A stretch of DNA of 64,000 nucleotides from a phage. The notes below the pieces were generated by a model. That model did no database searches. It was not told the origin of the DNA and saw nothing but the letters and a program-made list of their open reading frames with translations. The DNA is taken from NCBI GenBank assembly GCA_025823825.1, contig GCA_025823825.1_4720.1; one strand, 5' to 3'. Position numbers and translations under genes: made by a program. Shown in pieces: positions 7,008 to 16,717 of the stretch. Numbering within the stretch: the first letter of the stretch is position 1; each line of letters starts with the position of its first letter.

Positions 7008-8135
7008 TTATTTGGCGTCGTTAAAATAAATATCAACAGCTCGTTCCGTTGCGTAGAGGAGACCAAGATTCACAGTCCCAACCACTTCCGGTGAACCGAT
7101 GATACGGTTAGCGATACTGGTGCCACTGAAGATAGCATCAAGGGTGTGCCCGTCTTCGGTTTTGTTCACACCATGACCCACGGAAGAGACAACGGATTTC
7201 GCTTGTGCTGCGAAGGTACCTTTATCACCCATCCCCGCACCAAGGTCGTAACGCATGAAAATACGGATAGCGATCTGGTTCTCGCCTAACGGATTACCGT
7301 CTATTCTCACGTTACTGTTATTGATACGCCCCGTTGTTGCTTCGTTGAGTTTCAGTTCCTTAACGCGTTTAGCTCGCGCTTTATCCGCTTCACCGACGAG
7401 CGCCGCCATGGTTTCACTCATATCCTCAATCTGAGCACGGTACAATACATCGATCTGTACAACTTCACCATGAACGTCAGCACGTGGGTTATACTGACTC
7501 ATACGACGTAATGCTTCAACGGCTTCCTGGCTCTCATCGCTCAGATCAGTTGCAATCGGTTCTTCCAGTGTTGCAAGAATCGTTCGAGGTTCAACATGAT
7601 CACCGATTTTCACGAGACCACGAATGTTGAGATGAGCGTCAACAATGAGTGTACGACTTTTAATCGATGGTGTTACGAGGCGATCAGCAAGATTGTCGAA
7701 GATATACGAGCTATCCTCGTGCGTCTCTGGAATATCCAGAATACCAACAAGAGACAGAACACCTGCACGCCAAACAACCTGACCTGGGTTCCACCAATCG
7801 CGTTTAAAATAAAGACGATGGAAAACCACCACATCCTGATCCTTAACGCGATCCCCGACTTTATAATCGGTAATGAGATCGTGAGGATAATACTTACCTG
7901 GTCCTTTCCCGATTATCGTACCGAGCTGGAAAACCTCTTCCCCTAACTCTGGATCGTCGTATTGTATCGTAAGCGCAGTTTTGGTGACCTTCTTAACAAC
8001 ACCATCGCCTTGGGCAGCTGCTGCGAAGAGTTTACCAACACGATGCGCGATGACAGTCTCGCCACCAGTACGCCACGGTTGTACATCGTAACCTTCAGCA
8101 GCAATCATGCGGTTGTGCTGTATACCTATAAATAC
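7008..8135 (-). CDS. multisubunit RNA polymerase beta-like subunit, 3' exon
   Basis: Translation aligns by eye to bacterial beta: VFIGIQHNRMIAAEGYDV ~ VVTDEIHYLSAIEEGNYV; ETHEDSSYIF ~ GYNFEDSILV; IRIFMRYDLGAGMGDKGTFAAQAKSVVSSV ~ [30 protein letters not shown]. Frame is open upstream of the annotated TTG back to a stop at about 8153-8155; joins to the exon ending at 9833. Confidence 0.75.
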   Translation of the reverse strand, partial: VFIGIQHNRMIAAEGYDVQPWRTGGETVIAHRVGKLFAAAAQGDGVVKKVTKTALTIQYDDPELGEEVFQLGTIIGKGPGKYYPHDLITDYKVGDRVKDQDVVVFHRLYFKRDWWNPGQVVWRAGVLSLVGILDIPETHEDSSYIFDNLADRLVTPSIKSRTLIVDAHLNIRGLVKIGDHVEPRTILATLEEPIATDLSDESQEAVEALRRMSQYNPRADVHGEVVQIDVLYRAQIEDMSETMAALVGEADKARAKRVKELKLNEATTGRINNSNVRIDGNPLGENQIAIRIFMRYDLGAGMGDKGTFAAQAKSVVSSVGHGVNKTEDGHTLDAIFSGTSIANRIIGSPEVVGTVNLGLLYATERAVDIYFNDAK

Positions 8136-8481
8136 CAATCTCTTGGGCGAATTTAGTTCTTATTCAACATAATCATACTATTACCAGAATAAGACTGAGA
8201 TTAGATTGTTCAGATAAGGTCGTTAATCTTATCCCGGAGGCGACGATAGGCACATCACCTCCCGCTTACGTTCTCACGCAAGAGCAGACTATATCACATC
8301 TCGTCTTAGGCTTGTTTTCACAAGTCAAACGGTGCTTCTTCAGCACCTCAACGAGAGTTCACTTCTTCCCAGCGCATCCAGCGCCATTCTCTTATCCAAG
8401 GAGAATGCCTCACTCGAGGGGTACCGGGGGATGAATCCCTTAGTCGTTGAACCGTCACCCTAGAACGTTTCACAACGATCC

Positions 8482-9693
8482 TTAGGCGATTGGCTGCGGA
8501 TTACCCTTAGCCTGCGGACCACGAACTTTTAACGTGGTCAACTCTTCATTTTTAAAGCCCGCATCACGAGTTAATCGTCTCGCTTCTTGCACGTCTAACG
8601 TTTCCGTTTCCGCTTTGGCTGAAGGCAGCATTGGGCGTCCCCGCAATTCAATGAATCTCGTCCATACGTCACCGTATAAACGGACCCGCTCTTTGTAAAC
8701 AGAATAGTAAATATATCGCTTTCCATCAGGGAATTTCTTCATTCCTTCCGACTTCAAACGGTAATCTAACAATGTAGGACTGATCCCCATTTCTTTTGCG
8801 CATTCTACACCGGAGAGATACAACTTCGGTACGTCGTCTTCAGGAATAACCACAACGGCACGTTTGTTGTTTGTTTTCTCCAGTTCGATAATGCTATCAT
8901 CCACTTCACGCCATGGTGTTTGATCGGTTGCCCATTTCGCTTGGAGGAAACCATTAACGACCGGCTGATCTGGATCGTTAACATATTCCGATGCGGTGGG
9001 AAGCTTAACACCGATATGGTTGGCGAAATCCGTTAACGAATTAAAAATCTGGATTTCTTTCGTTAACGTGGATCTGGTAATAACACCTTTACTGGAGTCT
9101 TCAGATAGCGTAGCAATCTCGTATTCCGTCGGGATGTACCATGGGTCATCGCCGCGATATTTACGGTATTGCAACCTTTCGGTAAACGGACGTTCTTCAC
9201 CACGGTAAACACGATGATGAATGAAATCAATATTCACACCAAGTTTACGTGCTGCTTCCGTCATAGACGCATAATCCGTAACTTCTCCGGTATCGATATT
9301 GCGAACCTGAATGGGTTTGCCGTAAGCTTCGATGGCTTTTCGACGCATGGTCATGATGCGTGCGTGTTCGTTGTTCTCTTTTGCCGTCACCCATTCGAGA
9401 TTATCATTCTCCGTGTTACCGTCTGGATCAAGGTAATTATTAAGTTTATTACCGTCCTTATGGTTCACGTGGAGTTCGTATGCATCATCGATGTTACGAT
9501 ATGTCAACATCAATAAACGATGCATCGAACGATATGTGACAGTACCGTCGTGGCTACGAAACGCGTATCGCCAATACCCACCCATTATAACTGGCTTATA
9601 AATAAAACCAGTTTCTTTGTTACGCAATGTCCCATCAATGGCAATTTCAAGAAACGGGAATTCCTCTACTGTTTTGTACGTCAATTTTCTCAT
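8482..9693 (-). CDS. intron-encoded HNH homing endonuclease (403 aa)
   Basis: HNH_3-type motif HVNHKDGNKLNN…NLEWVTAKENNEHA; NUMOD-like DNA-binding motif TDYASMTEAARKLGVN; lies wholly inside the intron with its own promoter-like motif at 9739-9747. Confidence 0.8.
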   Translation of the reverse strand: MRKLTYKTVEEFPFLEIAIDGTLRNKETGFIYKPVIMGGYWRYAFRSHDGTVTYRSMHRLLMLTYRNIDDAYELHVNHKDGNKLNNYLDPDGNTENDNLEWVTAKENNEHARIMTMRRKAIEAYGKPIQVRNIDTGEVTDYASMTEAARKLGVNIDFIHHRVYRGEERPFTERLQYRKYRGDDPWYIPTEYEIATLSEDSSKGVITRSTLTKEIQIFNSLTDFANHIGVKLPTASEYVNDPDQPVVNGFLQAKWATDQTPWREVDDSIIELEKTNNKRAVVVIPEDDVPKLYLSGVECAKEMGISPTLLDYRLKSEGMKKFPDGKRYIYYSVYKERVRLYGDVWTRFIELRGRPMLPSAKAETETLDVQEARRLTRDAGFKNEELTTLKVRGPQAKGNPQPIA

Positions 9694-9738
9694 TGGCTAC
9701 ATTCCTTAAATCCTGCAGTGAACTTATCCTGCACTTTC

Positions 9739-9747
9739 GTAATATAG
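9739..9747 (-). promoter_or_regulatory. promoter-like motif CTATATTAC (minus strand) inside intron 1, upstream of the HNH ORF
   Basis: Same 9-mer and orientation as four other sites (1722, 28099, 41221, 53755), each upstream of a minus-strand gene start. Confidence 0.45.
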
Positions 9748-9832
9748 CCTTAATTCTGTTTACATTGAAGCCTTAATCATCTCTATCAGCAGCAGGTACT
9801 GCAAGTGCTGATGTACTCATTATTGACGAGCT

Positions 9833-12800
9833 ACCGTCCGTTTTCTCGTCGTAGGGTTTCGTTTCACCGTATACAGACACAATGTTTGCGTTAGGTGCGA
9901 GGTAAGCAGAAATACCTACATCCCCACTATCCTTCGTACCTTCGGATACAACACCAATGTCCGACTTGTCGTATTCACGATCGCGTGCGCGTCGAAGCGA
10001 TGTCTTTGAACGACCCCCGATACCGGTCATCGTTGCTTCTTCACCCTGCTTGATATCCAACATCGGGTTGGTTTCATCGATCACGATGGACGCGCTGTCG
10101 TCGAGAATTTGGTTCCAGACGCTTACCGGACTGATTGAGATTTTCTGACGATTTCCTTGACTGCTGTTCTCATTCTGGCGAATAGCGCCAACCAGGTCCT
10201 TATACACCAATTCAGCGAACTTATCGTACGTTTTAAAACGTTGGTAGTTCACATCGTTCGTGTTAGGTGCCCAGTCATCCAGAAGCAGTTCAACAGCACG
10301 CAGTAGCAACATGGCGAAATCGGTAGGTTCTCCCATGTTCTGTAATAGCGTACGGCTTACCGGATCAACGAAAAGACGCTCCATGAGTTCAAGTTCGCGT
10401 AAATGGCGAACCTTAAGTCCAGCACCATCGACAACGTTAAAATAGATATCTCGATTGTCGAAAGCACCGCGAGCGTAACCGATGTAGTTACGGTACTCGT
10501 TAAACCCACCCAACAACAACGTCGTCATGCGATCGTCTTTACTGAAGATCAAACTTTCGTCGTCAAAGCTCACCGCGAATTCATCTGGCGCTAACCCCAT
10601 ACGAGAACCACGAGGTACCGTACGATAGTTTGCTTTAAGATGTTCTAATAACGGGGTAAGTCCACCCAGATAACTTAGAACAACGCCAACCGGAATACGT
10701 ACACCCATGAATTCAAGATCGGCAGCTTCGATCGGCATCTTAGCCGCATTGATACCGAAGAAATCAGGGAACGTCCCTACAGGTGTTGGTGTTTGTCCTG
10801 ACTGACAGATATAGAGCTGATTGCGTTCATCGATCGCTAGGAATTCACCCGATGTGTTACGTGCGAACGTCAGGAGTCCTTCGGCTAACTGTTCGTTGAA
10901 CCGATCTTCCCCAATGAACTCCGGTAGCGTTTTTATATCGAGACGTATATCCCAATCAGCAAATTGGATTTGGGTATAATTGCGCGCAAGCACTGCAAAG
11001 TAGTACGGGACTTTGACAGCCGGATCAAAGACGTTACCACGTTTTAACGTGGTTAAGGGTGAGGACTTATCGTAATACATCGCTGTAAGTTGGCGTGTTA
11101 ACCAACGACCGGCGTTATTAACGACACGCTCTGAACGTTTAACAAACACCTTACCATAGGCGGTACTCAACGCAACTTCGGATGATGATACCTTTCTAAT
11201 AGGTTTATCAACACGTTGTTTACGCATCCGGTACTTGATGCCGTTAACGACATAAATGCCATCCTTACGAACCTTCGGCAACATCACCGGGAACGTGGTT
11301 GGGACACCGCCTACAGGAGCCAGTTTAATCGTGATGACTTGATAATCCCCCATCACGTCAACAACATCTTCAACTTTATATCCCGTAACAGGGTAACCAG
11401 CTTGCTGTACCGCAACAACGGCAGCTGCGATGTCCTTTTGCATTACATGTTCAACGTAATGTTTATCCCACACCGCAAGCGTCGATTTACATAGGCTCTT
11501 GTCGACGATAACGTCCGCTTCCGGCATAACCTTTGCGGGAGCTAATTTTGCGGCTTTTGGTTTAACTTCAACATACTCGGCAAGCGTTAATCCAGAACCG
11601 TCAGGTGCTTCGATTTCATGAATAGCGTCGGCATTACGCATCGCTGCTTTATATTGGACACCACTTAACTGACCCGCATCCGCCAGATCGCTCGCGCGCA
11701 CCAACACCGCATCCGATAACGACTGAATATATTCACCGTGCGTTTTTGGTAACGTTGCCGCGTCAAAGACATCAACCTTTTCTTCTTCGGTATCGTCGGT
11801 AACGACTTCGAAGAGATCGTCGGTAATGTCCTGATCTTCATCGGGCTGGAAATCCGGCTGTACTTCTACCCCGGGTACTTCACGGACATCTTCGAACGAG
11901 CGTTCTACAATGGCGTTCCACGCATCAGCGTCATCGTCTTCATCCGAACCACCGACCAACTCCGCTTCTAACTCGTCGGGATCAAGAACGGTAGCGAGAT
12001 CTTCACCGTTAGGAAGCATGACATCGCGATCATCGTACTCCGCATCCGGGCTGTCCGCAAGAATATCTCGCTCTTGACGAAGAACCTGTTCCTCTTCTTG
12101 TTTCTGTTCTTCTTCATTCGCGCTCTGCGACCACAGACGTGTTACCGCCATCATCCAACGACGCTGGAAGGTTTCAAGTGTCGTTTTATCGAGTTCTTCC
12201 CCTTCCTTTACAAGTCCGGTACGCCATTCTTCCAGCAGGCCAAGATTCAGCGTAAAGAAGTACACACCGTCTGTAAATACAACGTTAAGCTTATCCAGCG
12301 TGGCTCTGTCTAACGAAGCCATTGTGCTGTTCTCACGATCGGTTCCCAACCAGCGGAAGAAGTCAAAGAACGACAGCTCCTCCGGCGTAGCGAAATTCAT
12401 GAGGTTGTTACGGGTCGGTGCCTGTTGCGTGGTACGCATCAACGAAATCTTCGGCAATGTTGACGGTATACGGAACAACAGAAAGTGTTGACGATCGTTT
12501 TGTTGTGCGATTTCGTTGGCTTTCGACCAAATCGTTTTACGTACGTTGAACCATTCATCATACCAACGGGTGAGCGTTGGACGATAGATGTACATGTGGT
12601 TAAGATGTGCGTAGTTAGCAACGATCTGAGCGTTGATGTTTTTCTCCACCGCGCTTAGATCGGTAACCAAACGAAAACGACGATGCGATGCACGATAATC
12701 CAATTTCGCTCGTGGGAGTTGGAATCGTTGATCGCGTCGAGGCGCACCCTGTTTGGTTGCGAGATCATCAGCAAACGAAATCCATAGTTGAGCACTTTCT

Positions 12801-12982
12801 TTACTCAGCATGTATTCGTTTTCTGGAGGACCTATCAATGATGGATCCGTTGCGGTGTAATGATAGACAGCATAACGCGGCAGCTGCAATAGCTGCACTA
12901 AACGTAATCTCGGCGACAATAGCTCTTGGTAGCGTCGGACACCAAACTGTCGGTAGTAATCAAGGTATTTAAGTTTTGCCAT
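9833..12982 (-). CDS. multisubunit RNA polymerase beta-like subunit, 5' exon
   Basis: ATG at 12982 with GGAG ribosome-binding site. C-terminal region matches beta motifs: SEGTKDSGDVGISAYLAPNANIVSVYGETKPYDEKTDG ~ [36 protein letters not shown]. The last 20 codons of the annotated 1069-aa ORF (SSSIMSTSALAVPAADRDD) are intron read-through. Confidence 0.75.
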
Positions 12983-12985
12983 GGG

Positions 12986-13165
12986 TTAGGCTCCACGAGG
13001 TCCCGTTAAGTTGCGTAATAGGAACGCAACCGTATCGTAACCAATATCGATGTTGAATTTATTTTTACCACTTACCCAGAAAGCTCGCTTCTTGTGCGAG
13101 TTGGTAATTTCGTCAATGGCTTCCATGGAATAAAGAACGTTAACCGAGACCGTATCACCATCGAA
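12986..13165 (-). CDS. multisubunit RNA polymerase beta'-like N-terminal subunit, 3' exon (57 codons + stop)
   Basis: In-frame translation FDGDTVSVNVLYSMEAIDE… matches beta' catalytic region [22 protein letters not shown]; ends at TAA 12986-12988, three nt before the beta-like gene ATG. Missed by the ORF track because it has no start codon. Confidence 0.7.
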   Translation of the reverse strand, partial: FDGDTVSVNVLYSMEAIDEITNSHKKRAFWVSGKNKFNIDIGYDTVAFLLRNLTGPRGA

Positions 13166-15220
13166 CCTTGTCTTCGCCTCAGTTCGCTACGCTGAGACCG
13201 CCTGCATGGATACGTACATCACAGGCTGCTTGCACTTTCATGCAAGAGGAGACTATATCAAACCGTCAGCTTCACCTTCTCGATCGTATCGAGAATGCGG
13301 CGCTGAAGAATACTTCAGCAGCACCTGTTACGGTAACCTACACTTCGAAGACGCTTGTCCTCTACAGGGTGGTAAATCCCTTAGTCGTTGAACCTGCGTT
13401 GTTTCACATTTTTGCAAACAAGAATGCCGTATTGCTACGCAACAACCAGGCTGCTGATTGCCCATTGTTTCGCACCTTAGCACCGCTTACGCGGCTTTTC
13501 TTTCAGCCTAAGCCTCTTACGGAGGTAGTGCATCTCAACTTTTGTTTCTGCCTTTCGGCACCTCATGGGTCGTTGAGCTTTAGGGGTTCCCAGCAATTCG
13601 TAGGTTTTTCAAGCACTCCCTTTCGGGAATACCGGACCTTTACCCTTTAGCTAATTTATTTAAGTATCTGAAATCCCACTTATCTTTACGTCGTTTATCG
13701 CACTTAATGTCAGGATGATTAACACGATGTCTGATGGTCGTCGCTGACAGCTGACTGAGATTCTCAGCAGATCGTGCGCCAAGAACAACGAGTTTTGTGT
13801 CGTCTGGACGCGTAACTTCTACTGCCCGATAATGCTTACGTAACACATCACGCCAATATTCACGACGTTCTGGTTCAGCATACTCAAGCATGTAACCGTT
13901 AACATCTACTAAACCGTAGCTTTCGTTTAATCGAGAGGTAGCGGCTGGTTTACTAATACCGATTGCTTTAGCCGCATCGACCACGGTTTTATACGGGGTC
14001 TCATTACCGTCTCTATCTACAACCATAATGAAATCTGGACGTGAATCGAGTAGCTGCTGTCTGCGTTCGACGGCTTGTTGATGAAGTACCATGTTAACGT
14101 GTTCGAACCCGTAACCTTCTGGGCCACGCCATCCTGGATTGTTGTTCGCTCGATAAAGTATCGTCGATGATTTCACTCCAGTCTGACGCGATGCCTCGTT
14201 TGCGCTATGAACAACCGTGGTAGAGCCGTCAGGATGATATATCCGTATCTGGTTCATTATACCGGAACCAATGAAGTTACCGTCGGCTGATTTAATGTCC
14301 GGCCATGGTTGCGGGTCATCTTTGAATTTAACCACCCAGCGGTTGTTAAACAGCTTAACTTTTCGAACATGTTTGCCTAATGTCGTATCCGTAACACCTG
14401 CGATCACTGATGCTTGTGTGATGCTCAGGTACTCAGTAACGGTATCGTTCCAAGTATCCCAAAGCAGAACCGGTTTATTGTCGTCGCGTAAACCATGTTC
14501 GATAGCATGTAGGACATTACGACTTCTGGTCGCCCATTCCAGGTTATCGAGAGAATAGTTCCACTTATCAGCATCAAGATGATTAACGTCCAGACTATCG
14601 ACATTTGCTGGATATTCCCGCCACGCCAACATCAAGCAACGGTGTAATCCCTTATTACCAGCCTTCTGGCGACAATCATGTTTCAAGCAGACAGTAACGT
14701 AACGGTTCGTTTCGAAACGTGGATGATAGATACTCCCGTCCTTTCTGTCTCTGATTTCACCTGCTTCGTTTATTACGTATCTCGTCATTCCTGGAATAAC
14801 ACGATAACCGGGGTACTTAGCGATCTCATAAGCAGGCTCGAAACGATAGGACAAATTATCAACATCCCAATTAGATTCGTTACCGTCAACAAACATCGCT
14901 TTGACGTACTTCTGTGTTTCAATATCAACCAGGATGTTTTTGTGTGCGATACAAATCAATGCTGGGATATTGAATTCGCGACCGACTAAATTAACTGTGT
15001 CGCCGTTTCTCGGTATCTCGACGTGGGTATCGCGATACCGTAAGTTTCCATAGCCGTCTATTTCAATCCAGCTCAGAAACGGAATAGATATAAATTCTTT
15101 TTCAGATACACGCCATTTAAACATATAAACCTCTGTATAACCTTACTATCACACTAAGAGGTTTATCTGTAAATTCTTACAAAACGGCGTAAATTACTAA
15201 AAAGGTCGATCACCGCCTAA
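13166..15220 (-). mobile_element. group I intron (about 2.05 kb) inside the beta'-like RNAP gene, carrying an HNH homing endonuclease ORF
   Basis: On the minus strand: Q-like AATCAGCAGC (about 13456-13465), R-like GUUCAACGACUAAGGGAUU (about 13377-13396), S-like GAUAUAGUCUCC (about 13250-13261), then the 3' splice site after a G. 5' exon ends in U (…gcc ggt). Spliced junction gives …YLAG|FDGD…, rebuilding a YNADFDGD-like catalytic motif. Confidence 0.75.
13640..15124 (-). CDS. intron-encoded HNH homing endonuclease (494 aa)
   Basis: HNH_3-type motif VNHLDADKWNYSLDNLEWATRSRNVLHA; NUMOD-like motif SITQASVIAGVTDTTLGKHV; own ribosome-binding site (agagg) before ATG at 15124. Confidence 0.8.
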   Translation of the reverse strand: MFKWRVSEKEFISIPFLSWIEIDGYGNLRYRDTHVEIPRNGDTVNLVGREFNIPALICIAHKNILVDIETQKYVKAMFVDGNESNWDVDNLSYRFEPAYEIAKYPGYRVIPGMTRYVINEAGEIRDRKDGSIYHPRFETNRYVTVCLKHDCRQKAGNKGLHRCLMLAWREYPANVDSLDVNHLDADKWNYSLDNLEWATRSRNVLHAIEHGLRDDNKPVLLWDTWNDTVTEYLSITQASVIAGVTDTTLGKHVRKVKLFNNRWVVKFKDDPQPWPDIKSADGNFIGSGIMNQIRIYHPDGSTTVVHSANEASRQTGVKSSTILYRANNNPGWRGPEGYGFEHVNMVLHQQAVERRQQLLDSRPDFIMVVDRDGNETPYKTVVDAAKAIGISKPAATSRLNESYGLVDVNGYMLEYAEPERREYWRDVLRKHYRAVEVTRPDDTKLVVLGARSAENLSQLSATTIRHRVNHPDIKCDKRRKDKWDFRYLNKLAKG

Positions 15221-16717
15221 ACCGGCGAGGTATGGGGCTGGGACAATAGTCGTTTCTACGAATGAAGCATTAGGTAACCAGTCGGGGTATTCCCATGCGA
15301 TAAATCGTTCATCCGTTATTGGTTCCCAGTTACTATCCAGTTCGGTTTTCGGTTTTGCGGCGACGGTTGTACGTGCGTAACAGGTTAACGGGATAACGGA
15401 TTGCATACCTGATACCGGATAACGTGTTACCATTGCAGCCAGGTTATTCCAGTACTTATATCCGGCAATATAGATAAGCTCGGTGTAAGTAATGGGGTGA
15501 ACATCCGCGCCAGGTTTATTCAACATCTCCGGGGGTAATTCACTCATGCCACGGAATAACCGAAACGAATCGTTGTTCACATAGACGAGGCAAAGATATC
15601 GTCCATTGACCATGATAGGCTCGTTACGCACGCCAGGATCGCTTAAGGTGTTCAGTAAACGTTCTATTCCGTCCCATGTTGTAAAGTCATCGATGGTGTC
15701 TGGATCAAGCGTGACGCGCTCACGTTCCATCGTTTCGGTATCAATAAGTTCAACTTCTGTAACATCACGGACAAATATTTCCTGCAAAATACCGGTACGT
15801 AACGCATGTTGCGTTACTGGGAGAGCGGCTTTACTCATCTGGTATAACCCTAACTGAACCGCGGTACAGGAAGGCTGGTTAGGCGACCCTAATACCTCCG
15901 TTGTGGGGTTAATTGCCGAAATAACGTTACGGGTTGAGTTCCAAACACGACGTGAGCCGAACTTACCTTGGAAGATCCCTTTCTTACCTTGGAACATATC
16001 CAACAACAAAGCGTAGATATCGTTAAATGTTCTCTGTAAGCTCCAGCGCTGGCCGTCGTAAACGGGATCAGAATAATCTTTTAATCCATCAGGGACGGTG
16101 TTAGAAATTGCAAGGAAACGACGATACAACTCTGTGATTTCTTGCTCGCTTTCATACCCGCCTTCTTTTACTTCTATTTCACGTAAGCCTGCAGGTAAAA
16201 CCAGTAAGTGACGGGTCATCGCTTTGAACATGTTCTCTTCGACGACTTTAATACGTAGCTCTCGTTGAGCTGAACCCGTTGAAACGAACTTAATATCAGC
16301 GACGTGTTGTGCGAAGAACCCGTATCCTGTTTGTCCTGTTAATGCATCAGACGCAACGAAGTCGCGTTGTTCTGGATCCCAACGCGCGTACGCCTTTCCT
16401 GACATGATATCACCATAGAGGTGTTTTAGTCGAATGAGGCGATCGTAAATGACAGGATGCAGGATTTCAACTTTGCATTCAATCACCGCAAATCGACGGT
16501 CTCGGTCTTCACTGCCCGCACTACCAAAGATGGTGTAAGAATAGAAACCGTCATCATGGAAATTACCGGTGCTTGGGTCACGAATGCTCATGCTCGTGAT
16601 CTTGGGGAGAAAACGTAACTGCTGTTTATCGAGGTGTAAAATACTAATGTTAAACGGCTCTCTGACTTTAGCCATGGAGACACTCCTCTTTACCACCACC
16701 GGCTGCGGCGGTATCAT
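15221..16717 (-). CDS. multisubunit RNA polymerase beta'-like N-terminal subunit, 5' exon
   Basis: beta' homology: GKKGIFQGKFGSRRVWNSTRNVISAINP ~ [35 protein letters not shown] ~ LPPDLRP; YRRFLAISN ~ YRRVINRNN. Likely true start is the ATG of MAKVREPF (about 16674) preceded by AGAGGAG. The annotated stop at 15197 lies in the intron. Confidence 0.75.

Follow-up and report, generated by a model that had tools for sequence, protein, structure and literature searches.

We consider it highly likely that the DFDGD motif of a beta'-like virion RNA polymerase gene in the phage contig GCA_025823825.1_4720.1 is interrupted by a group I intron carrying an HNH endonuclease gene, and that the element is real and correctly read in this way, including the splicing and homing mechanism proposed below. 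The analysis covers a 64-kb stretch of the contig, here called the window; all coordinates are those of the window and refer to its minus strand. The element is a member of a well-known class and not a new kind of element, and a homologous intron is already flagged in the record of the phage Goslar.

Host gene and locus layout

Read along the minus strand, the locus begins with a 506-aa open reading frame (ORF; 16717..15197) that ends in ...PAPYLAGLGGDRPF and a stop codon (i.e., ...YLAGLGGDRPF). About 70 nt of non-coding sequence separate it from a 494-aa ORF (15124..13640), which is followed by ~475 nt without a long ORF and then by a start-less in-frame segment (13165..12986) encoding FDGDTVSVNVLYSMEAIDE...TGPRGA and a stop. 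The ATG of a 1,069-aa ORF stands 3 nt past this stop, at 12982. An earlier note, made from the sequence alone, had read these pieces as two exons of a beta'-like polymerase gene parted by a group I intron with an HNH ORF. Most of what it described is borne out by the results below: the two coding pieces and the spacing to the next gene, the HNH ORF between them, the core elements Q, R and S with their P7 pairing, the match to a group I model on the minus strand, the identity of the host gene, the insertion inside the DFDGD motif and the 3' boundary of the intron. Its 5' boundary had to be moved.

Both coding pieces matched the same protein family. In PHROG profile searches exon 1 matched phrog_2986 ("RNA polymerase beta subunit") with E=3e-161 and the 59-residue exon 2 matched it with E=1.5e-10. 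Profile positions 3-484 align to residues 17-503 (ending ...GGD) of the ORF starting at 16717, and positions 485-538 align to residues 1-54 of exon 2, directly continuing the exon 1 match. A tblastn search of a phage collection returned 296 records with homologues of the host gene, mostly from phiKZ-like jumbo phages of Pseudomonas, Erwinia, Salmonella, Vibrio and others. One homologue is PhiPA3 gp212 (38.6% identity over residues 1-544), whose record carries the note that it is similar to phiKZ gp180. Sequence matches in the PDB were weak and comprised the beta' subunit of phage AR9 and other DNA-directed RNA polymerase beta'/gamma chains, with ...LSGDYDGD of AR9 aligned to ...LGGDFDGD of the host gene. 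Because of the phrog_2986 match, the homology to PhiPA3 gp212 and these beta' matches in the PDB, we identify the host gene by its sequence as the N-terminal beta'-like subunit of a phiKZ-type virion RNA polymerase.

The Asp triad of DFDGD is a conserved catalytic motif of beta' subunits, and these Asp residues were present in every full-length homologue examined. The C-terminus of the host protein lies ~55 residues past DFDGD, where the beta'-like subunits of these phages are naturally split, after the DPBB domain (PMC7598289). The downstream gene (9773..12982) encodes a beta-like subunit (phrog_3148; counterpart of PhiPA3 gp211/209) and not the remainder of beta'. At the 5' side of the gene, a ribosome-binding site (Shine-Dalgarno; AAGAGGAG) lies 7 nt upstream of ATG 16675, and the database alleles begin at this same codon (MAKVREPF). 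Thus, the true start is probably ATG 16675 and not the ATG 16717 of the mechanically called ORF, which gives a protein of 548 aa rather than 562. The features of the locus are listed in Table 1.

Table 1. Features of the interrupted polymerase locus and of the second intron, in window coordinates.
Feature	Position	Strand	Basis or remark
Exon 1, beta'-N-terminal-like virion RNA polymerase gene	15209..16675	-	codons 1-489; ends ...LGGD (GAU), last nt U15209
Group I intron	13166..15208	-	2,043 nt; first nt C15208, last nt G13166 (omega-G); set by the L003 intron-less allele
Exon 2	12986..13165	-	59 codons + stop, FDGDTVSVNVLYSMEAIDE...TGPRGA; without its own start codon
Predicted P1 5' strand, G(-3) A(-2) U(-1) ^ C(+1)	15208..15211	-	across the 5' splice site; pairs with 13638..13635
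Predicted internal guide sequence (P1 3' strand), GGUC	13635..13638	-	two nt 3' of the HNH stop codon UAA 13642..13640, with A13639 between
Predicted P1-extension helix, 5' strand, ACCUUUUUAGUAAUUU	15191..15206	-	pairs with 13657..13642
Predicted P1-extension helix, 3' strand, AAAUUAGCUAAAGGGU	13642..13657	-	overlaps the last HNH ORF codons and the first stop-codon base
Predicted hairpin AAACCUCU...AGAGGUUU just upstream of the HNH start	15127..15164	-	minimum free energy fold; 3' arm contains the likely ribosome-binding site AGAGG
HNH endonuclease ORF, 494 aa	13640..15124	-	intron-encoded; Pfam HNH_3, phrog_59
P2 hairpin, GGUAUUCCC-GAAA-GGGAGUGCU	13612..13633	-	RNAalifold consensus helix with compensatory changes; visible directly in the sequence
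Ribozyme core P3-P9, including P4, P5, P6, P7.1, P7.2, P8	13229..13611	-	RF00028 and RNAalifold
P3	13606..13600 with 13341..13335	-	core alignment
P7 5' strand, GACUA (inside R)	13382..13386	-	invariant in 8/8 introns; RF00028 P7 columns
P7 3' strand, UAGUC (inside S)	13251..13255	-	invariant in 8/8 introns; RF00028 P7 columns
Second group I intron	8148..9775	-	flanking exons 9776..12982 and 7008..8147 of the beta-like gene

Splice junction and predicted product

The ends of the intron were set by comparison with intron-less alleles. Three uninterrupted 548-aa alleles (P0001-P0003) match the predicted spliced protein at all but 1-3 residues and are identical to it across the junction; one of them comes from a Salmonella Enteritidis assembly, on a contig of 238 kb. 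All three read contiguously through the site as ...PAPYLAGLGGDFDGDTVSVNV... and ...TIVPAPYLAGLGGDFDGDTVSVNVLY... (PAPYLAGLGGD^FDGDTVSV; a caret marks the insertion point or splice junction throughout). At the DNA level, the uninterrupted gene of a close relative, L003 (~95% identity), aligns with the window as two blocks that abut at the junction, and the translation across the junction is identical in L003 and in the spliced window sequence. Only a single pair of sites gives D-F in the product together with U at position -1 and G at the intron end, namely GGU GAU (U15209) and UUC GAU (U13165), and we therefore define the intron as 15208..13166, with the 3' boundary at G13166^U13165. By this comparison the intron splits the motif after the codon for its first Asp, directly before that for Phe (D^FDGD). 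The spliced coding sequence, 16675..15209 + 13165..12986, has a length of 1,647 nt, equal to that of the L003 gene, and is predicted to encode a 548-aa protein with an intact ...LGGDFDGDTVS.... The predicted ligated junction in the window is ...GGCGGUGAU^UUCGAUGGUGAU... (spliced site GGTTTAGGCGGTGAT^TTCGATGGTGATACG), and the predicted junction-spanning peptide is GLGGDFDGDTVSVNVLYSMEAIDEITNSHK, contained in ...YLAGLGGDFDGDTVSVNVLYSMEAIDEITNSHK. The RPF and stop codon at the end of the 506-aa ORF are intron read-through.

The alleles with and without the intron differ at the site itself. The intron-less DNA of L003 reads GGACTTGGCGGGGACTTTGATGGTGATACG, or GGACTTGGCGGGGAC^TTTGATGGTGATACG when split at the insertion point. 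The site is GGU GAU^UUC in the two intron-bearing genomes, those of the window and Goslar, and GGG GAC^UUU in the intron-less allele. The U at -1 in the intron-bearing alleles is what the U-G wobble of the P1 helix described below requires, and the other synonymous changes around the site could alter the endonuclease target.

The earlier note had set the 5' splice site after U15221, with an intron from 15220 to 13166 and a product reading ...PAPYLAG^FDGDTVSV.... This site, too, has a U at -1, a G at the 3' end of the intron and an unbroken frame, but the product would lack the first Asp of DFDGD. All full-length homologues retain L-G-G/A-D before FDGD, near-identical intron-less alleles read YLAGLGGDFDGD, and the PHROG profile aligns exon 1 through D503. 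Furthermore, no pairing with a guide sequence was found for this site, whereas the pairing of GAU^C with GGUC is conserved. We regard a splice site after U15221 as extremely improbable. The true intron start is 15208, 12 nt further 3' on the minus strand, and the junction moves by four codons to the PAPYLAGLGGD^FDGD of contiguous intron-less homologues, which leaves the interpretation as a group I intron unchanged.

Two other kinds of interruption were ruled out. An intein does not fit, as a stop codon lies three codons after the junction and the insert consists of a ribozyme and a separate ORF. A free-standing endonuclease gene between naturally split genes does not fit either, as exon 2 is start-less and continues the same family profile.

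Ribozyme core

RF00028 was the sole Rfam family above threshold in the window. It matched 13229..13721(-) with 60.8 bits (gathering score 50, E=6e-13). The elements Q (AATCAGCAGC, 13459..13450), R (GTTCAACGACTAAGGGATT, 13393..13375) and S (GATATAGTCTCC, 13259..13248) correspond in the Rfam alignment to the conserved P4/P6 junction and the two P7 strands, with the pairing of GACUA to UAGUC forming P7. The P1 and P2 columns of RF00028 did not identify the real P1, since they were placed on the 3' end of the ORF with mismatches. A minimum free energy fold of an ORF-deleted construct recovered neither P1 nor P7.

An RNAalifold consensus of eight related introns contains P2, P3, P4, P5, P6, P7.1, P7.2, P8 and a terminal hairpin, and in 36 of the 48 predicted pairs both sides have changed with pairing preserved. 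The P7 strands are invariant and thus contribute no covariation. P7.1 and P7.2 (alignment columns 271-273/298-300 and 304-309/314-319) each show compensatory changes. The presence of P7.1 and P7.2 between the P7 5' strand and the P3 3' strand is the layout of subgroup IA and typical of phage introns; on this consensus model, the architecture of the intron is subgroup-IA-like.

Compared with Goslar, the core is 98% identical while neighbouring parts of the intron have diverged. The two introns are mosaic: alongside the conserved core there is an unrelated stretch of 85 nt (15123..15207) that contains equivalent helices, and a diverged patch in the HNH ORF.

Predicted pairing at the 5' splice site and position of the ORF

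The predicted guide sequence lies just 3' of the HNH ORF. In the predicted P1, G15211 pairs with C13635, A15210 with U13636, U15209 with G13637 (the wobble pair) and C15208 with G13638. A conserved (A/G)GUCC is found directly 5' of P2 in every related intron examined, and in the ORF-bearing introns it stands at the ORF end or just 3' of it. In this register all 32 of 32 cells over eight introns are paired, and no shifted register exceeds 62.5%. At +1 the window and Goslar have a C-G pair, five other introns have U-A, and the second intron of the window, which is described below, has U-G. In the related locus L008 the Asp codon is GAC and the intron lies 2 nt further 3' (GAC UU^C); its guide, GAGUC, puts the U-G wobble at the shifted site, which we take as a supporting detail for the predicted P1. 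The P1 pairing is thus consistent with these sequences rather than proven. The usual position of a guide, the first 85 nt of the intron, holds nothing complementary to the exon end and is unrelated in sequence between the window and Goslar. A scan of the whole intron for 6-9-nt complements of the exon end yielded matches only inside the ORF or in known helices (P4, the P6 region, P8), and these were judged spurious.

A longer helix is predicted to extend P1 (Table 1). Goslar swaps both of its strands together, for GAAAGGCUA and UAGCUUUUC, and RNAduplex found the same layout of P1, internal loop and extension helix in the window, in Goslar and in the related loci L004, L005 and L007, with sequences that are all different. 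This model places the HNH ORF within the loop that the extended P1 closes, with the entire catalytic core 3' of it. Just upstream of the HNH start the minimum free energy fold contains a hairpin, and the counterpart in Goslar, ACCUAUUAAU...AUUAAUAGGU, is unrelated in sequence and equivalent in structure. This hairpin may limit translation of the HNH protein. Scans for sigma-70 promoters and terminators gave no enrichment relative to shuffled sequences; these phages use their own polymerases.

The HNH protein

The 494-aa protein matched Pfam HNH_3 over residues 177-204 with 31.9 bits (cut-off 24.8) and the HNH endonuclease family phrog_59 with E=9e-27. It is 84% identical to the corresponding ORF of Goslar. 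Identities to the proteins at the same site fall to 31-33% in L004 and L007 and to 25% in L005, and the identity to PhiPA3 gp210 is 27%. From these values the HNH proteins at the beta' site appear to form a loose group. By analogy with I-HmuI and PhiPA3 gp210, the protein is probably a nicking enzyme. The ORFs of the window and Goslar differ at their ends (494 vs. 490 aa) and in a strongly diverged patch of ~160 nt (14630..14790) just upstream of the HNH motif.

Weighing the evidence for splicing

In the mechanism that we propose, the pre-mRNA would form the short P1 from exon GAU and the first intron nucleotide, C, with GGUC (13638..13635), including the wobble U15209-G13637. The longer helix would extend P1 and hold the HNH gene in its loop, and the catalytic core P2-P9 would lie 3' of the ORF. 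A free guanosine would attack after U15209 and the freed exon would then attack after G13166, yielding the ligated mRNA 16675..15209 + 13165..12986 and, from it, the 548-aa subunit. The HNH protein may then cut intron-less alleles (GGGGAC^TTTGATGG) in co-infecting relatives, and repair would either copy the intron in (homing) or damage the competitor. The support for these steps in the present analysis consists of the ribozyme model match, the helix covariation, the restored frame and the presence or absence of the element in relatives; splicing as such, nuclease activity and specificity, and mobility are what we infer.

Several observations weigh against this interpretation. Splicing is so far a prediction from sequence comparison. 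P1 is unusually short, with only 4 bp of which 3 involve the exon, and its covariation comes from a single pair. The P1 helices of the window and Goslar are not independent, and a shuffle control for P1 was not significant (56/500). The duplex energies of the P1 extension gave weak z-scores of -0.5 to -2.2, and no convincing P10 with the 3' exon was seen, at most two A-U pairs. For the HNH protein, NUMOD1 scored 19.3 bits, under the Pfam cut-off of 22.8, and the match to the I-HmuI structure (PDB 1U3E) was marginal (E=0.12) with a faint alignment in the second domain. Finally, introns were once predicted in phiKZ at gp56, gp72 and gp179, and long-read transcriptomics saw no splicing there (PMC10914365); predicted phage introns are thus not always seen to splice.

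The short P1, the predicted nature of the splicing and the phiKZ precedent would also suit a decayed relic that does not splice. The gene would then be broken or split, the 506-aa product would work without DFDGD or not at all, and the tail would be untranslated. However, the protein encoded by exon 2 is 100% identical to that of the intron-less alleles, although around the junction the exon DNA of the window and that of L003 agree at only ~96% of positions. Conservation of the protein in spite of this DNA divergence points to purifying selection, and does so for a segment that is itself start-less. Nor would a relic be expected to keep a ribozyme core that is 98% conserved between the window and Goslar next to diverged intron parts, or compensatory changes in the core helices, and the catalytic Asp triad, of which exon 1 supplies the first Asp and exon 2 the rest, is retained in every full-length homologue examined. 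A decayed relic therefore seems very unlikely to us, and we keep to a group I intron that splices.

Distribution among relatives and probable mobility

The host of the intron is a jumbo phage closely related to the Escherichia phage Goslar, to which the window is 92.6% identical. In a comparison of three close genomes, with ~95% DNA identity between the window and each of the other two, the window has two introns, Goslar has one (at the beta' site) and L003 has none. The presence of the intron and its HNH ORF in some of these genomes and not in others marks them as a probable mobile element. Among the 120 best homologues listed from public databases, about 30 end directly after the first Asp of DFDGD, many of them at an immediate UAA, and two (P0078 and P0114) end right after DFDGD, possibly at a second site. 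In the phage collection searched with tblastn, 285 of 296 records were uninterrupted over at least 80% of the query. On these counts D^FDGD of beta' is a recurrent intron target, yet one that is rarely occupied in the phage collection.

We compared six further loci from distant phages (L004-L009) in which the exon 1 ORF stops right after ...G(A/G)D. L004, L005 and L007 have the order exon 1, HNH ORF and a core scoring 83.3, 64.8 and 80.9 bits, respectively, with Rfam. The introns of L009 (81.2 bits) and L008 (61.4 bits) are without an ORF, and the sequence of L006 runs off the contig end.

The flanks of the insertion site were compared between the window, L003 and Goslar in bins of 60 nt. The last 60 nt of exon 1 (15209..15268) have 5-8 synonymous differences in each of the three pairwise comparisons. 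Most other flanking bins have ~0-3 differences, and one upstream bin has 12-13 in the comparisons with Goslar. On the exon 2 side no excess of differences was seen among the three genomes, and the flanks contain no co-conversion tract common specifically to the two intron-bearing genomes.

These data also bear on what the endonuclease is for. The intron could splice while its HNH protein acts mainly as a weapon against intron-less competitors in co-infection rather than as a driver of spread; homing would be compatible with such a role. PhiPA3 gp210, a member of this broad HNH family, has been shown to nick phiKZ gp178 and to reduce the fitness of the competitor (PMC11620839), and competition of this kind could take place among three close relatives that carry zero, one and two introns. 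Plain homing, however, accounts just as well for the patchy distribution, in which about a quarter of the 120 best homologues are occupied, and the missing co-conversion tract also speaks against a role mainly as a weapon. We hold such a role to be possible but rather doubtful.

Comparison with known systems

The nearest relative is the intron of Goslar (MK327938 / NC_048170; L001, L002), which has the same insertion site, the 98% identical core and the 84% identical HNH protein. The Goslar record, in GenBank and RefSeq alike, contains an "Intron_gpI" non-coding RNA of 429 nt that is restricted to the Rfam core. It leaves the exons unjoined: exon 1 is annotated as a complete 502-aa "RNA polymerase beta subunit" or as a hypothetical protein, and exon 2 is unannotated, and DFDGD is therefore absent from the annotated proteome. 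The HNH ORF, Goslar_00230, is annotated as "hypothetical protein" and "weakly similar to ORF179 [phiKZ]". The Goslar genome paper is silent on introns.

HNH-bearing group I introns in the RNA polymerase genes of this phage family are already established. In PhiPA3, the HNH protein gp210 is encoded in an intron of the beta gene gp211/gp209, just past a conserved pair of Asp residues (Birkholz et al., 2024, Science; PMC11620839; review PMC12908238), and nicking of phiKZ gp178 by gp210 was shown experimentally to give PhiPA3 a competitive advantage (PMC11620839). The window and PhiPA3 share the phage family, the gene cluster (beta'-N followed by the beta gene) and an HNH-bearing group I intron at invariant residues. 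The PhiPA3 core aligns with the intron family of the window, with (C)AGUCC at the same position just 5' of P2. The two differ in the site, which is DD of the beta gene in PhiPA3 and D^FDGD of beta' here, and the beta' HNH protein of the window is only 27% identical to gp210. As annotated, PhiPA3 gp211 reads through into the intron.

In phiKZ a related HNH protein, gp179, lies between gp180 and gp178, in the same gene neighbourhood. In the phiKZ-like Pseudomonas phages the host gene is uninterrupted, with tblastn covering residues 1-544 in one piece. Given that PhiPA3 gp212 is annotated as similar to phiKZ gp180, gp179 would be free-standing and not inside the beta' gene.

The classical phage group I introns with HNH nicking endonucleases encode I-HmuI (SPO1), I-BasI (Bastille) and I-PfoP3I (PMC12908238). 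The intron described here resembles them in its conserved site in the gene of an essential nucleic-acid enzyme, in its HNH ORF and in having P7.1/P7.2. It differs in the host gene, which is an RNA polymerase beta' gene where theirs is a DNA polymerase gene, in the predicted position of the ORF in an extended-P1 loop 5' of the core, and in the predicted exon-guide pairing of only 3 bp. In the literature searched, of which coverage was incomplete, we found no description of an intron at the beta' DFDGD site.

The corrected gene model has consequences for annotation. It replaces the truncated product without a catalytic motif, 506 aa in the ORF track of the window and 502 aa in the Goslar record, by a 548-aa protein with DFDGD. 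As about a quarter of the 120 best homologues share the truncation, this core jumbo-phage protein is probably incomplete in many gene calls. Goslar serves in the laboratory as a model of nucleus-forming phages, and close relatives with zero, one and two introns offer a possible Escherichia coli system for studying competition by intron endonucleases. Such a system would add a second target site, within the metal-binding motif of the polymerase.

A second intron in the adjacent beta-like gene

The window contains another group I intron, in the beta-like gene immediately downstream. The beta-like ORF (12982..9773) ends in ...AVPAADRDD and covers only positions 2-1050 of a family profile with 1,424 positions. 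It is followed by a 403-aa HNH ORF (9693..8482) and by a 376-aa ORF (8138..7008). In Goslar and L003 beta is a single 1,448-aa gene, and the alignment to it is carried on by the 376-aa ORF. RF00028 matched 8265..8707(-) with 49.9 bits, just below the gathering score of 50 (E=3.4e-11 locally and 1.1e-9 window-wide).

This intron is the counterpart of the PhiPA3 element. Its insertion point, directly after two conserved Asp residues, coincides with that of the gp210 intron, and the encoded HNH protein shares 39% identity with gp210 over nearly the full length (E=3e-58). Neither Goslar nor L003 has this intron. Judging by the frame, the terminal G and the resemblance to the intron ends of PhiPA3 and L009, its 3' splice site probably follows G8148. 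Splicing there would give DD^PKRLVF, compared with DD^GKRLVF in L003. P1 is GAU^U with GGUC (8686..8683), and the extension helix is a perfect 12 bp (9764..9753 with 8705..8694). The ORF begins, as in the beta' intron, in the P1 loop but extends through the core, past the guide sequence to P6.

A speculative extension of these results is that one lineage of introns, with the HNH ORF in an extended-P1 loop, colonised both D^FDGD of beta' and DD^ of beta, using a shared GAU^N target read by (A/G)GUCC. Genomes with zero, one and two introns would then coexist among Goslar-like phages of E. coli and Salmonella, with the introns acting as stacked weapons or homing elements that shape co-infection. 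We consider this scenario unlikely as a whole and put it forward only tentatively.

Further introns scoring with RF00028 were seen downstream of two of the compared loci, at L008:9956-10348 (62.8 bits) and L009:8180-8569 (58.2 bits), apparently at other positions of the beta-like gene. Introns seem to be frequent in the virion polymerase genes of these phages.

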